From a virus: a stretch of DNA of 64,000 bases. Of the stretch, positions 13,888 through 41,675 are shown one piece after another. Location: IMG/VR virus record IMGVR_UViG_3300045988_130750, positions 64,001 to 128,000 of that record, one strand, 5' to 3'. How positions within the stretch are numbered: position 1 is the first letter of the stretch; each line of letters opens with the position of its first letter. The position numbers were made by a program, and so were the translations under genes. The notes beneath the pieces are model-generated. The model made no database searches. It worked only from the letters and a program-made list of their open reading frames with translations, and was not told the DNA's origin.

Positions 13888-14095
13888 ATTCTTATAAAAA
13901 ATAAATATTGCAGTCTAACAAAATACAAACGGTATTGGCGTACCTCTTTTGATAGACTGCAAAGTAACACATATAGCAGAATTAAATTCCGCTTGATATT
14001 ATTGTACATAGATTTTATTAGAAAGTCAAGTTTTTAAACAATCAAGCATTTCTGCTAAATATTTCATATTTTACAATTTTAATTAAGAAAATTAT

Positions 14096-14167
14096 AGGAC
14101 TATCGCCAAGCGGTAAGGCACAGGACTTTGACTCCTGCATTCGCTGGTTCGAATCCAGCTAGTCCTG
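14096..14167 (+). tRNA. tRNA-Gln (anticodon TTG)
   Basis: Hand-folded cloverleaf: acceptor AGGACTA/TAGTCCT, D arm GCC..GGC, anticodon stem CAGGA/TCCTG with loop CTTTGAC, T arm GCTGG-TTCGAAT-CCAGC, discriminator G. Confidence 0.85.
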
Positions 14168-14213
14168 TTATATAATTTTACACTAAATCAAAAAAGAAAG
14201 AGGAGTGATAATA

Positions 14214-17249: not shown

Positions 17250-17322
17250 AGCGGATTAGTGTAATGGTTTAGCAAGCAGAGCTTTGACCTCTGAGGTAAG
17301 AGTTCGATTCTCTTATCCGCTG
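17250..17322 (+). tRNA. tRNA-Gln (anticodon TTG), second and sequence-distinct copy
   Basis: Acceptor AGCGGAT/ATCCGCT, anticodon stem CAGAG/CTCTG with loop CTTTGAC, T arm AAGAG-TTCGATT-CTCTT, discriminator G. The D stem has only 3 bp. Confidence 0.7.
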
Positions 17323-37236: not shown

Positions 37237-37902
37237 ATGAATTTTTTGTTTTTGAGCAATTTAGGACTAGAATATTTAAATAATGGATTTACAACAATAG
37301 AGTTAGTTTCAAAATTTTACGATGTCAGTATTGATACCATTAAGACAATAATAAAGAGAAATCGTGATATATTTGGGGATATTGGATACAAGACTATAGA
37401 GAAAGATGAATTACAAAGGGTTATATCAGAGAACCCTGATAAAAGAATAAGCAGACGTTGCCGTTGCTTAGCAGTATTAAATAACAAATGTGTTATATAT
37501 CTTGCATATTTACAATCGTCAACAAAATTAACATGTGAAATTATTGATATTAATATGAAATTGAATTATAAACTTCACAATGCAATATTAAACAGATATT
37601 CAAGTACAAGTTTTGAAAAGAAATATGAAAAAGAATTAAGCTTTTTAGTACATAGCATTTTTGATGAATTTCATAAAATTGACGAACAAGTGTGCTGTGA
37701 AAAATATAAAATTGATTTTGTTATAGATGACTATTTAGCTATTGAATGTGATGAAGATGGACATTCTAACTACAATCAACAAGAAGAAATAAAAAGAGAA
37801 AAATGTATTATTTCTAATGGATATAAAATATTAAGGTATGACACAAGAGAAAATAATATGTTGAAATTTATAGGTCAAATTAGTAATTGCTTATGTAAAT
37901 AA
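37237..37902 (+). CDS. PD-(D/E)xK endonuclease of DUF559/Vsr-like type with N-terminal HTH-like region
   Basis: KIDFVIDDYLAIECDEDGHSNY...REKCIISNGYKILRY fits the DUF559 pattern (iDf...laiE.DG..H...R...L...Gy.vlRf). No SD. Confidence 0.55.
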   Translation: MNFLFLSNLGLEYLNNGFTTIELVSKFYDVSIDTIKTIIKRNRDIFGDIGYKTIEKDELQRVISENPDKRISRRCRCLAVLNNKCVIYLAYLQSSTKLTCEIIDINMKLNYKLHNAILNRYSSTSFEKKYEKELSFLVHSIFDEFHKIDEQVCCEKYKIDFVIDDYLAIECDEDGHSNYNQQEEIKREKCIISNGYKILRYDTRENNMLKFIGQISNCLCK

Positions 37903-37941: not shown

Positions 37942-38508
37942 ATGAAGAAATTATTTATTAGTCAACCAATGAGAGGTAAAACAGATGAGGAAATTTTGTT
38001 AGAAAGAAAAAGAGCAATAGAAGCAGCAAAAACAAAAATTGGAGAAGATGTAGAGGTTATTGAGAGCTTTTTCAAAGACGCACCAGTTGATGCAAAACCG
38101 CTTTGGTATCTTGCAAAGTCTATTGAGTTATTAGCAACGGCAGATATCGCATACTTTGTTGATGGATGGGATAAAATGCGTGGTTGTAAAATCGAATATG
38201 AGTGTGCAACAGAATATGATATTGAAACGATTGCTGAAGGTGAAATGGAATGTCTATGGCGTTTTTATTGGGATTGTGGTAGACAGGGCGAAGTCGAAGG
38301 TGTGTTCAAGGCGACAAAAGAAGAAGTAGATAATGTGATTGGTAAGGATGTATATTTCGGAGAAATTCTTGGAAAACACAGTGAAGTATATGGAACGATT
38401 GAAGAGGGAGAAATCACATTAGAATCTGATGATCCATTAGTTGTAAAAAATGCTGTAGAAAGTGGCTATAATCCACTTGATTATTTAGAAGAAGATGGAG
38501 ATGATTAA
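37942..38508 (+). CDS. DUF4406 / nucleoside 2-deoxyribosyltransferase-like protein with C-terminal extension
   Basis: KKLFISQPMRGKTDEEI ... ADIAYFVDGWDKMRGCKIEYECA resembles the DUF4406 pattern (ISGPM ... GWe.S.Ga..E...A). Confidence 0.5.
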   Translation: MKKLFISQPMRGKTDEEILLERKRAIEAAKTKIGEDVEVIESFFKDAPVDAKPLWYLAKSIELLATADIAYFVDGWDKMRGCKIEYECATEYDIETIAEGEMECLWRFYWDCGRQGEVEGVFKATKEEVDNVIGKDVYFGEILGKHSEVYGTIEEGEITLESDDPLVVKNAVESGYNPLDYLEEDGDD

Positions 38509-38630
38509 TCAATAAAAGTCGCAGTAAATTTCGATTTCATGTTAACAGAAAGAGAGAATACATAAGTGTAACAAGGCGATAAGCCTAAAATATAAAGTTT
38601 AAAAATCAAAGTTAAAAAGGAGAGAACATT

Positions 38631-39272
38631 ATGACAACAGAAAAGATGACAATTCATAAGGCACTTGCAGAGTTAAAAATCGTAGATGATAGAATTATTT
38701 CTGCAATCAATGGTGGTACTTATTGTGTAGCAAATAAGCATTCCAACGAAAAGATCAAGGGTGTACCAGTTAAGGAATACGAAGGCGTTATGCAAGGTTA
38801 TTACGATAAGGCAACAGACCTTATTAAAAGAAGAAATGCAATCAAGAGAGCGGTTGTTTTATCAAATGCTACAACAAAAGTTTCTATTAATGGCATTGAA
38901 TACACAGTGGCAGAAGCTATTGAGATGAAGAATCATGGGGTAGAGTTTGATGAGAAGATGTTAACTGCATTAAAGAAGCAATATGACAAGGCACAGGCTG
39001 AAATCCTCAAACAGAACGGTGATGACCTTGAAAAGAGAGCAGAACAATATGTAATTGGCATTTACGGTTCTAAGGAAGGTAAAACTAATACAGATGATTT
39101 CGAGAAGACAAAGAAAGATTTCATCAATGCAAATTCATATGAGTTGATTGATCCTATTAAGATTTTGGACAAAATTAACACATTAGAAGAGAATATTGCA
39201 TCTTTCAAAGCAGAAGTAGATGCTGCACTTAGCACATCAAATGCTGTAACAGAGATTGAAATTAACTATTAA
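38631..39272 (+). CDS. hypothetical helical protein, probably highly expressed
   Basis: Strong SD AAAAAGGAGAGAACATT. Flanked on both sides by AAAGTT repeats. Faint resemblance to the DIP1984/septicolysin-type helical family (low certainty). Confidence 0.6.
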   Translation: MTTEKMTIHKALAELKIVDDRIISAINGGTYCVANKHSNEKIKGVPVKEYEGVMQGYYDKATDLIKRRNAIKRAVVLSNATTKVSINGIEYTVAEAIEMKNHGVEFDEKMLTALKKQYDKAQAEILKQNGDDLEKRAEQYVIGIYGSKEGKTNTDDFEKTKKDFINANSYELIDPIKILDKINTLEENIASFKAEVDAALSTSNAVTEIEINY

Positions 39273-39574
39273 AGAGAGAATAGTTAATTAGAAGTTATTC
39301 ACTGTTTACCGAAAACTTTAAACTACAACTCATCAGTCTTTTGCAGAGATAGACTTATGTAAAGCTGAAAAAGAAATCTGCAAAATAATAAAAAATATTA
39401 CAAATTATTGAATTAATAAAAGATGATTAATTTATATGATTTGTATAATTTCAACTTACTACAGTACATAATTCGGCAAGATAATGGTGAAACCATTGGC
39501 TGATATGTATAACATTAAATATGAAATTATACTATAATTATCAGATTGCCTACGATAATGATAGGTGTGTGCTG

Positions 39575-39670
39575 TAAAGTTTAAAGTTATAAGGCTCAAA
39601 TAACAACGCTCAGAAGTTCAAAGTTTAAATTATGAGTCAAAGTTAAAAGAGTAAATAGTAAAGTTGTAAA
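39575..39670. repeat. cluster of AAGTT-core direct repeats (iteron-like)
   Basis: GTAAAGTTTAAAGTTAT, GAAGTTCAAAGTTTAAAT, TCAAAGTTAAAAG and GTAAAGTTGTAAAG lie within 96 bp. Extra copies occur at 38593-38618, plus an inverted copy at 39314-39323. Confidence 0.6.
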
Positions 39671-40219
39671 GATTTATCAAATCCTTGATACACAGTTTAG
39701 CATAGTTGTATTTGGCTATAAGCATCTGCAAGGCTGGTAAATGGTGAATAATTTTATATAAAACCTTGGGTGTTTTATGGAGTGTTTAAGCACTCTATTT
39801 TTCCAAGAGTGAAATTAATGAGTTGCAGGAATATTCGAGAGTAATTAACTTGAATATTCCATTAAACATCCAAGTGAAAGGTAATCCCAAATATTCACAA
39901 AACAATGGGATAGAGGCTATGGTTCTTAGCCGTTTATCAAATATTTTGATAATAAATGGTATTTTTAAAAGCCAATGAATCTGACATTTCTTTGGCTTTA
40001 CAAACCTAGTGTTTACAAGGGTTTCAGAGGTCAAAAATTTCAAAAATGCTCAAATCGAGCAAAAATCCATAATTTTCAATGATTTTTAGAGAATAACAAA
40101 AATGAAGTGCTGAAAACCCCTTATAAATCAATGGTTTTACAGTATCAATATCAAGAAACAGAGAATATAAGAATAACAAGAAATCACTGTTTCATTGGGA
40201 AATTTGAGGAGGTGAGAAT

Positions 40220-40723
40220 ATGGAAGTAAGAGTTAGATTATCGGATGCACATAATACAATTAAAGAATATGAAAACTTAGGATACAGATTTATCGGATCA
40301 AGACAAGATATTAAATATGTAAACCTTTTCTTTGAAGAAGTCCATATACCAAAAGAGAATAATGTAACAGATATAAAATTTAACATCGGAGATTTCGTAG
40401 AAAATAGAGATGGAAGAATTGGTTACATTTCAGATATATGTCATTGTGATGAATGTAAAAAGCGTGGGTTCTTTGAGCCAACAATTCAGTATTCAGATGG
40501 TACAAACGATTACATATCAAATTATTCTGTAAAATACGTTTCTAAAGACTATAAACAGATTGGTACTCAGAAGTTCGATAATGACTATTATGAGAAAGAA
40601 ATTGAAAGCTTGAAACATCAATTAAAGATGGAGAAAAGTAAAAGTGCTTATTGGAAGATGAAATCCAATGGAGAAGAACCTGTTTTAATGGGTACAAGAG
40701 AAGGAATGGTTCACATTCTTTGA
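40220..40723 (+). CDS. hypothetical protein
   Basis: ATG follows TTGAGGAGGTGAGAAT. TTTC box at 40190-40198. Confidence 0.65.
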   Translation: MEVRVRLSDAHNTIKEYENLGYRFIGSRQDIKYVNLFFEEVHIPKENNVTDIKFNIGDFVENRDGRIGYISDICHCDECKKRGFFEPTIQYSDGTNDYISNYSVKYVSKDYKQIGTQKFDNDYYEKEIESLKHQLKMEKSKSAYWKMKSNGEEPVLMGTREGMVHIL

Positions 40724-41156: not shown

Positions 41157-41260
41157 TTAGTCTTGAACGATTCAGTTCAAAAATTCCAAAATAAAATGTC
41201 ACGAATAATATATAAAAATCGAGACAAAAAAGAGAATAAATAAGTGAGGTGAGAAATATT

Positions 41261-41443: not shown

Positions 41444-41675
41444 AATTCTTAATAAATCTAATCCGACTTAATCAAGTCAAAAATTCCAAAAACAAATAAC
41501 TGAACAGAGAATATATGAATGGGTGGTTAGCAGCATACCCTTGAGTTTTTGCACTCAAAAATCACTGTTTATGGATAAATTTTCATATAGATTTACTTCC
41601 ATGTTCCGTCCTGATAAGGGCGTTTATATATAAGTTATTTATTAAATTTTATTACATATAAGGAGGATTCATTTA

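Follow-up and report, generated by a model that had tools for sequence, protein, structure and literature searches.

Evidence for a large structured RNA with a heptad-repeat array downstream of the PHROG 1491 gene in T5 and distantly related phages

What does a phage keep in 947 bp of DNA that hold no open reading frame (ORF)? The question is raised by a 64,000-nucleotide stretch of a viral genome (IMG/VR record IMGVR_UViG_3300045988_130750, positions 64,001 to 128,000; the whole stretch is called the window here, and its own numbering is used), a one-strand, AT-rich phage genome segment (GC ~31%) with three tRNA genes. A preliminary description of the window had singled out positions 39273-40219 as its largest gap and had offered two readings of it, a replication origin and/or a large structured RNA. 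The gap is indeed the longest plus-strand stretch free of ORFs of at least 60 amino acids (aa), with a runner-up of 670 bp, and it follows directly on the gene for a 213-aa protein. That gene was used to gather the starting relatives, 80 viral contigs of ~100-200 kb with 51-100% protein identity; the comparison set for the gap RNA came to more than 200 related loci. The answer to which the comparison leads is that positions 39296-39750 very probably encode one structured RNA on the plus strand, closed end to end by a long helix and carrying a long array of single-stranded 7-nt repeats, which recurs beside the same gene in phages as remote as T5.

The closing helix and the fold that it encloses

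Set against the fetched contigs, the gap retains two blocks even in distant relatives, a match to the Rfam family RAGATH-27 and ~39569-39761; the full 39273-39992 is conserved only among relatives that are ~96% identical. The parts of the RNA are as follows (A1 and A3 denote alignments of 36 diverse hairpin sequences and of 35 diverse RAGATH-27 sequences, respectively):

39296..39310, plus strand: 5' strand of the closing helix P0, UAUUCACUGUUUACC, pairing with 39736-39750
39298..39382, plus strand: RAGATH-27 (RF03100) match, the RNA's 5' domain (Rfam 93.4 bits; gathering score 76.1)
39311..39330, plus strand: single-stranded junction GAAAACUUUAAACUACAACU, conserved in A3
39331..39359, plus strand: pseudoknot helix S1, CAUCAGUCU (39331-39339) with AGACUUAUG (39351-39359), from A3
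39342..39382, plus strand: hairpin helix S2, 39342-39347 with 39377-39382, the stem of the Rfam model
39383..39571, plus strand: AU-rich spacer of variable length, alignable only among close relatives
39572..39671, plus strand: heptad array, ~14 tandem AAAGNUY units, opening with CUGUAAAG
39683..39733, plus strand: three-tier 3' hairpin P1/P1b/P2 (A1)
39683-39687/39729-39733, plus strand: P1, 100% paired, 3 of 5 pairs covarying (A1)
39693-39695/39726-39728, plus strand: P1b, 85.6% paired (A1)
39698-39701/39715-39718, plus strand: P2, 90.2% paired, with up to 5 pair types (A1)
39736..39750, plus strand: 3' strand of P0, GGUAAAUGGUGAAUA, 2 nt after P1, pairing with 39296-39310

P0, which a repeat finder had first listed as a 19-nt inverted repeat (I6), is a helix of 15 bp that joins the nominally unpaired leader of RAGATH-27 to a conserved tail lying beyond the 3' hairpin. 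It was tested with no fitting, by taking at each locus the 18 nt before an invariant G-AAAA and the 18 nt after an invariant GGCU: 12-14 of 14 positions are paired in 37 distinct sequence pairs, across spans of 289-462 nt. In alignment A4, 94.3% of the cells are paired (slid controls, 30-58%), and 13 of the 15 pairs have changed on both sides. Among the cells of the inner 12 pairs, which include one conserved G-U, 346 are Watson-Crick, 73 are G-U, a single one is of another kind and none is A-C. This asymmetry between G-U and A-C excludes inverted repeats acting at the level of DNA and identifies plus-strand RNA as the functional strand. An unaided thermodynamic fold of 39290-39756 (z = -4.26) forms P0, S2 and P1, with P0 present in the minimum-free-energy and the centroid structures alike. 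Because P0 covaries and forms unaided, RAGATH-27, spacer, heptads and hairpin belong, as judged by sequence comparison, to one fold of ~455 nt (39296-39750), formally a single molecule or two that pair; the 3' hairpin, two nt away from P0, probably stacks on it.

Rfam has listed RAGATH-27 since 2017, as a motif of 86 nt with a puzzling, conserved and 'unpaired' leader of 46 nt. The match in the window takes in all 86 positions of the model (E 8e-12 when the whole window is searched) and has the features of the family, a hairpin with a conserved large loop preceded by ~46 conserved nt. It is the sole non-tRNA Rfam match at the curated threshold in the window, where every family other than RAGATH-27 and the tRNAs was tried and gave none, and a permissive scan of 38300-40500 brings up nothing further that is credible. 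RAGATH-27 is also found in the relatives, among which an nhmmer profile recovers 183 loci; the Rfam model misses the versions in T5-like phages and in Clostridioides phage LIBA6276. Hairpin and conserved 5' sequence are common to the window's copy and the Rfam family, but in the consensus as printed there neither the hairpin loop nor any of the first 46 positions is paired, whereas here the first part of the leader is taken up in the 15-bp helix, whose other strand lies ~430 nt downstream, and a segment just 5' of the stem pairs with the loop as a pseudoknot. That second helix, S1, joins the 9 nt directly 5' of the Rfam stem to the first 9 nt of the hairpin loop; it is 88.3% paired (slid controls, 28-45%), with changes on both sides in 8 of 9 pairs, and none of 500 shuffles reaches its score. 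The sequence of S2 diverges freely among 41 distinct relatives while its complementarity is retained, and the A-rich loop segment 39360-39376 (17 nt, the third loop) crosses S1. On this comparative evidence S1 and S2 make an H-type pseudoknot within RAGATH-27. The leader is now explained as one strand of the closing helix, the pseudoknot is added, and the motif becomes a domain of a ~455-nt RNA.

An inverted AAGTT-type repeat pointed out beforehand, AAACTTTAAAC at 39313-39323, is present and falls within the conserved single-stranded portion of the RAGATH-27 match. Two further pairings in this region were rejected. The junction AAACUUUAAAC, which a folding program paired with the first heptads, is 70.8% paired with them and 69.0% paired with shuffled partners, with no covariation; a UUUAC/GUAAA pairing inside RAGATH-27 is, by eye, lost in three relatives (L058, L069, L073).

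The very AT-rich tract of the preliminary description is equally real (39350-39449, GC 16% against a background of ~31%) and corresponds to the variable spacer. In one clade (L108) the spacer carries a tRNA (4972-5042 of L108), which P0 encloses with 13 of 14 anchored pairs; there is tRNA sequence in the spacer of Erwinia phage Special G as well (L215, ~2255-2330), where the helix is only tentative. Sigma-70-like hexamers at 39509-39538 score 10/12 and have counterparts in the spacers of several relatives; their number is not above chance (7 found, 11.2 expected).

What had been called an iteron-like cluster of AAGTT-core repeats is the heptad array. It is far denser than chance allows (6 YAAAG per 110 nt, the window's mean being 0.58 with a standard deviation of 0.77), and no other stretch of the window is so rich in YAAAG. 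Its 7-nt period is strict, with autocorrelation peaks at 7, 14, 21 and 28 in 75 distinct relatives, and the heptads all have the same orientation, on the transcribed strand; such an array is an unusual feature for an RNA. Heptads are also found in phiLLS/T5, LIBA6276, Pseudomonas phage M5.1 and Special G, those of T5 being of mixed type. GTCAAAG is the second commonest unit among the 75 relatives. The two phage tRNA-Gln(UUG) genes (14095-14168 and 17250-17322) share the anticodon loop CUUUGAC, to which one GUCAAAG heptad of the window (39636-39642) is exactly complementary, and the general unit nUYAAAG complements C-U-U-U-R-A loops; this may be coincidence.

The 3' hairpin completes the fold. 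None of 500 shuffles reaches its observed score in A1, slid controls give 33-45%, and the covariation of P1b and P2 is not imposed by the DNA pattern that was used in searching. The arms of P1 change in concert, from CCUUG/CAAGG to CUUCG/CGAAG, CCAUG/CAUGG, CCCUG/CAGGG and CCACG/CGUGG; RNAalifold recovers P1 and P2 unaided; and a covariance model, R1, built solely from gut-phage hairpins, scores 92.9 bits on the hairpin of the window. By these alignments all the helices of the RNA covary in related phages. The heptad and hairpin part has no Rfam family, in the window or in the T5-like and LIBA6276 loci. Two alternative assignments for this part were discarded: a sigma-70 promoter, CCTTGATA-N16-TGTATT, whose putative -35 element (CTTCG, CCATG, CCCTG, CCACG) varies together with its pairing partner, and a local helix of AUUUAUCA (39672-39679) with UGGUGAAU (39742-39749), which is 72% paired with little covariation, the tail pairing with the RAGATH-27 leader instead.

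Thus, the large structured RNA of the preliminary description survives as the covarying RNA at 39296-39750; the stacked hairpins at 39765-39999 that had been counted toward it fall outside. The GOLLD/ROOL class to which it had been compared is not supported, the Rfam covariance models for GOLLD, ROOL, HEARO, OLE and raiA finding no match at gathering score in the whole window or at E<=10 in 38300-40500. The RNA is like GOLLD and ROOL in exceeding 400 nt, in being phage-borne and in adjoining tRNA genes; it is unlike them in its smaller size and in its architecture, where a repeat array that is long and unstructured, together with a spacer that varies, takes the place of a densely ornate fold of many helices.

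The linked gene and the spread of the module

The gene upstream and the signals around it are these:

38590..38620, plus strand: two to four heptad-like units (TATAAAG TTTAAAA ATCAAAG TTAAAAAGGAG) in the 5' untranslated region (UTR) of the 213-aa gene, abutting the Shine-Dalgarno sequence
38631..39272, plus strand: 213-aa gene, a homologue of T5.085 in PHROG 1491 (E 7e-54), directly upstream of the RNA
39275..39282, plus strand: AGAGAATA box, a putative promoter element of the phage, separated by 13 nt from the 5' strand of P0

Searching with a degenerate DNA pattern of the hairpin brings up more than 118 further loci in viral contigs. A homologue of the 213-aa gene lies directly upstream, on the same strand and 265-429 nt off, in 91 of 105 hairpins found by pattern, and most of the other 14 have no upstream sequence. 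The start of the RNA keeps a constant position, 1-25 nt past the stop codon of the gene, and the two halves of the RNA are never found apart in those of the 105 copies for which the sequence is available. As far as sequences can tell, the association of the RNA with the upstream gene is obligatory. The extra repeat copies noted beforehand at 38593-38618 are also genuine and are kept in relatives: of 40 distinct relatives nearly all have heptads in the 5' UTR of the gene, among them ones with a textbook sigma-70 promoter further upstream, and so does phiLLS/T5.

The RNA pattern is phage-specific: in 596 Gb of bacterial genomes it has 23 matches, 7 of which are confirmed by the covariance model. 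These seven lie in assemblies filed as bacterial (L220, L227, L230, L234, L236, L240 and L241); the copy in L234 (5698-5793) is on a 656-kb contig of a cultured isolate, Flavonifractor sp. An82, and could represent a prophage or a carrier state, or hint at a Clostridia host.

The gene, followed by a non-coding gap of 370-830 nt, recurs in T5, phiLLS, LIBA6276, BCP78, pVp-1, BIS47, M5.1 and Special G. In six of these named phages the best match of R1 is at the expected place and on the expected strand:

Clostridioides phage LIBA6276: E 4e-6
Bacillus phage BCP78: E 2e-4
Vibrio phage pVp-1: E 0.03
Klebsiella phage BIS47: E 0.2
phiLLS: E 0.4
T5: E 0.5

All six also have P0, whose 5' strand ends at GA(A/C)A and whose 3' strand starts after GGCU (in phiLLS, GCUAGUAAAUCGGUAGAC with GUUUAUCGGUUUACUAGU). 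M5.1 has pseudoknot, heptads, hairpin and P0; Special G has pseudoknot and heptads, with a hairpin and a P0 of ~8 bp that are tentative and assigned by eye. Hence the window and its relatives present the same four parts, P0, RAGATH-27 pseudoknot, heptads and 3' hairpin, in the same order after the PHROG 1491 gene. In T5 the RNA occupies the space from T5.085 to the promoter annotated for T5.084, a gap that 440 T5-like records conserve, with no RNA annotated there in any of them. The wider setting changes, lying between lysis and nucleotide-metabolism genes in T5, beside the portal gene in BCP78, and just upstream of replication genes in the phage of the window and in M5.1.

The module thus spans Demerecviridae (T5 among them), Herelleviridae, Vequintavirinae, Otagovirus, jumbo Erwinia phages, Clostridioides phages and gut Clostridia phages. 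That gene and RNA have been kept as a pair over such a distance points to a step that is probably central to lytic infection, and the presence of the module in T5 makes the question directly accessible to genetics and biochemistry in E. coli. A search of the literature turned up no description of the ~455-nt RNA, no function for RAGATH-27 and no mention of RAGATH-27 or T5.085; the main text of Weinberg 2017 does not name RAGATH, and the motifs in a catalogue of viral candidate RNAs measure only 29-151 nt.

The protein offers few clues. Its family counts 4012 homologue clusters and 720 phage records; it has no match in Pfam, in NCBIfam or in a sequence search of the PDB, and its PHROG label, 'tail fiber protein', is without support. 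An AlphaFold2 model (pLDDT 87) is helical with a small sheet, and a fold search with it recognises no OB-fold or other nucleic-acid-binding fold, the best PDB match (3kdq, E 0.02) being uninformative. Other Rfam motifs occur near homologues of the gene in individual relatives: RAGATH-36 (L073, 2940-3067; L080, 2437-2565), RAGATH-18 (L058, 5344-5417) and, on the minus strand just upstream of the homologue, FuFi-1 (L033, 3664-3836; L034, 3657-3829).

Possible functions of the RNA

The best overall explanation, toward which belief and doubt are evenly balanced, is that of a large structured plus-strand RNA with a protein-binding scaffold or titration role, coupled to the upstream gene. The RNA would be transcribed as a 3' extension of the mRNA of the 213-aa gene, or initiated at the AGAGAATA box at 39275. 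Because the heptads remain single-stranded and hold a strict phase, the array suggests a row of cooperative sites for a heptad-specific RNA-binding factor; that heptads are protein-binding sites at all is given a little less than an even chance. The most economical candidate for the factor would be the product of the adjoining upstream gene. The RNA might titrate or assemble the factor, surplus factor shutting off translation of the gene through the heptads of its 5' UTR, a scheme that is favored because two to four heptads abut the Shine-Dalgarno sequence in nearly all lineages, T5 included. Taken by itself, the identification of the upstream protein as an autoregulating partner is rather unlikely. 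P0, because it can enclose a tRNA, might serve as a processing stalk that separates the RNA from both the mRNA and the tRNAs downstream. A more ambitious and more doubtful version has the RNA as founding a new, widespread class of large phage RNA, a ribonucleoprotein in which ~12-14 heptads, looped by the end-to-end helix, would serve to load the co-encoded protein as a ring or filament, or else to capture a different multimeric factor or the anticodon loops of tRNAs; the ribonucleoprotein would be active early in infection, beside the tRNA and DNA-metabolism genes.

Some known systems invite comparison. The operator of T4 gene 32 combines a pseudoknot with unstructured A/U-rich repeats to which gp32, with a site size of ~7 nt, binds cooperatively. 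Its likeness to the present module lies in the pseudoknot and the run of short, A-rich, single-stranded repeats, some of which abut the ribosome-binding site of the linked gene. Autoregulation of gp32 through a 5' pseudoknot is cited in PMC10690425. Here, however, pseudoknot and main array lie downstream of the gene, not 5' of a repeat region that includes the ribosome-binding site, and the RNA is closed by a helix of long range. The protein linked to it is helical and non-basic, with no OB-fold match, and the two systems have no sequence relationship. Titrating RNAs with tandem short motifs are also known, CsrB/RsmZ for CsrA, and 11 triplet repeats are bound by the TRAP ring. The likeness is in the many tandem single-stranded motifs on a structured RNA, by analogy with which a sponge or ring-loading logic is possible; the units here differ in being AAAGNUY with a 7-nt period, phage-encoded, with neither GGA nor (G/U)AG units. 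A type III toxin-antitoxin RNA of the ToxI kind fits poorly, the unit being 7 nt as against pseudoknot repeats of ~34-40 nt beside an endoribonuclease toxin gene, and no Pfam, NCBIfam or PDB match marks the 213-aa protein as such a toxin (PADLOC was not searched).

Several considerations weigh against a titrating or scaffolding RNA coupled to its gene. What points to the upstream protein as a candidate partner is linkage only; its family has a pI of 5.5-7.8, mildly acidic to neutral, and no family annotation, and its predicted structure has no recognizable RNA-binding fold. The ends of the RNA, at 39296 and 39750, are inferred. The R1 E-values of 0.03-0.5 in phages of Gram-negative bacteria are weak alone, so that position, strand and the accompanying P0 carry the claim there. 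The covariation of P0 cannot distinguish pairing in cis from pairing in trans, and, with promoter-like hexamers in the spacers of some relatives, the halves could be separate transcripts that pair in trans. Finally, protein-bound heptad arrays also exist on DNA, as in the omega repressor of pSM19035.

Of the alternatives, the one that fares best, while still unlikely, is a 3' UTR or processing element that acts purely in cis, in which pseudoknot and closing helix would protect the mRNA from exonucleases or make up an RNase III-type stalk parting mRNA, RNA and tRNAs, and the heptads would have no dedicated partner, being an A-rich spacer or a landing site for the ribosome or S1. The constant distance from the stop codon is what such an element would show, an acidic upstream protein argues against an RNA-binding role, and a long-range helix around tRNA-bearing spacers recalls the stalks of rRNA operons. 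What a mere spacer leaves unexplained is the strict 7-nt AAAG-N-U-Y period, held from Clostridia phages to T5, and likewise the heptad units set against the Shine-Dalgarno sequence of the gene.

Somewhat less probable still is that the fold consists of two RNAs pairing in trans, RAGATH-27 being the 3' UTR of the mRNA, the heptads and hairpin a separate small RNA or the leader of a tRNA operon, and P0 a regulatory duplex governing stability or processing. The promoter-like hexamers in the spacer of the window and of several relatives fit this arrangement, as does a variable-length spacer that may carry a tRNA, the processing of which would split the RNA; so do the tRNA genes that directly follow the hairpin in many relatives. 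Against it, the promoter-like sites are no more frequent than expected in AT-rich DNA, the halves stay together wherever they can be followed, and P0 forms in a single-molecule fold.

The replication origin of the preliminary description is quite improbable. The heptads would be DNA iterons for an initiator (possibly the upstream protein, regulating itself) and the AT-rich tract an unwinding element. The ~14 direct repeats do adjoin a tract of 16% GC, replication genes do lie just downstream here and in M5.1, and the repeat copies at the 5' end of the gene resemble Rep/iteron autoregulation; contiguous short direct repeats with extra copies near the start of an adjacent gene are likewise reminiscent of iteron origins and of the omega repressor sites. 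Yet RNA helices with compensatory changes account for all of the flanking conserved sequence, and the inner 12 pairs of P0 tolerate G-U and not A-C on one strand. The repeats, of a single orientation on the transcribed strand, lie within this covarying RNA, and a period of 7 bp does not keep in phase with the DNA helix. Neither the sequence nor the length of the AT-rich tract is conserved; the tract varies between relatives and can hold a tRNA, so that it provides no conserved unwinding element. The synteny is with the 213-aa gene rather than with replication genes, and the cumulative GC skew rises monotonically across the window, with no inflection at the site. Specific support for an origin is lacking.

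A decoy for host factors is given the same low standing. Its AAAG units would soak up an A-rich-specific endoribonuclease (an abortive-infection toxin) or pair with the anticodon loops of U34-U35 tRNAs. The complementarity of the general heptad to C-U-U-U-R-A loops, the CUUUGAC loops of both tRNA-Gln(UUG) of the window, the frequency of GTCAAAG and the proximity of the RNA to tRNA clusters in most lineages can be cited for it. That complementarity may, however, be numerology only; an anti-defense accessory is not usually kept as a core module in hosts as unlike one another as E. coli, Vibrio, Bacillus and Clostridia, and the heptads of T5 are mixed in type. The chance that the locus reflects DNA-level inverted repeats, the terminal repeats of a 450-bp mobile cassette or chance palindromes, is practically nil: the 19-nt inverted repeat flanks the region, but the G-U and A-C counts of P0 already contradict the notion, the internal helices covary too, position and orientation beside one gene are fixed in all lineages, and there is no transposase.

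The rest of the gap and other observations

Beyond P0 the gap holds the following:

39762..39992, plus strand: clade-specific hairpin-rich segment, outside the conserved RNA
39780..39805, plus strand: terminator-like hairpin GGAGUG-UUUAAG-CACUCU, followed by AUUUUU, 30 nt past P0
39993..40178, plus strand: window-unique segment with a TCAAAAATTTCAAAA box and two AGAGAATA boxes, having no match in the fetched loci
17127, 29061, 33217, 38553, 39275, 40088, 40160, 41231, 41506, 52589 and 58609: examples among the 35 AGAGAATA sites
40031-40045, 41177-41191 and 41477-41491: TCAAAAATTYCAAAA sites, each intergenic and 29-57 nt upstream of a AGAGAATA box

Every inverted repeat that had been listed for the hairpin-rich segment is there in the sequence, and the fold of 39762-40005 is stronger than that of its shuffles on either strand (z = -5.75 plus, -4.40 minus). 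The segment 39762-39992 is restricted to loci that are at least 93% identical; nothing in it is repeated at other places in the window, and outside the close clade it has no relatives. In other relatives its slot holds tRNA genes, which in other clades directly follow the second conserved block, the RNA adjoining tRNA clusters in most lineages. Searches of 39762-40005 with ARAGORN and with Rfam gave no tRNA remnants. The terminator-like hairpin forms in the fold, is found only in close relatives and is not listed by a simple terminator scan. On the minus strand the segment contains an ORF of 82 aa that starts with TTG (39795..40043); it is probably spurious, because no other minus-strand gene is evident in the window.

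The position of 39993-40178 is a hypervariable slot between the RNA and a 167-aa gene: in place of these 186 bp a locus that is 99.9% identical (L001, 5363-6341) has three small ORFs (86, 131 and 65 aa), and other close relatives carry 1-1.7 kb there. The segment carries the pair of boxes, TCAAAAATTYCAAAA and then AGAGAATA, that also precedes two nearby genes. Most simply, it is the promoter region of the 167-aa gene. Both boxes, reported beforehand near the 3' end of the gap, are over-represented in the window (AGAGAATA, 35 copies against 8.4 expected; TCAAAAATTYCAAAA, 3 against 0.23). Copies of AGAGAATA are on the plus strand in 34 of 35 cases, many of them 20-80 nt upstream of start codons or just past stop codons, and it is a candidate phage-specific promoter element, with which TCAAAAATTYCAAAA may be paired as a regulator site. 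The copy at 39275 is present in the clade of the window, in L026 and in L033-38, and absent from the L039 clade; upstream of the 213-aa gene some clades retain a AGAGAATA box and others have a textbook TTGACA-17-TATAAT.

Two observations concern neighboring genes. A 221-aa ORF two genes upstream (37237-37902) has a C-terminus like that of DUF559 / MTES_1575 endonucleases, and its product is possibly a homing endonuclease or one of the very-short-patch-repair type. A tRNA of one relative (L027, 3838-3909) has UUA as its anticodon and would decode the stop codon UAA.

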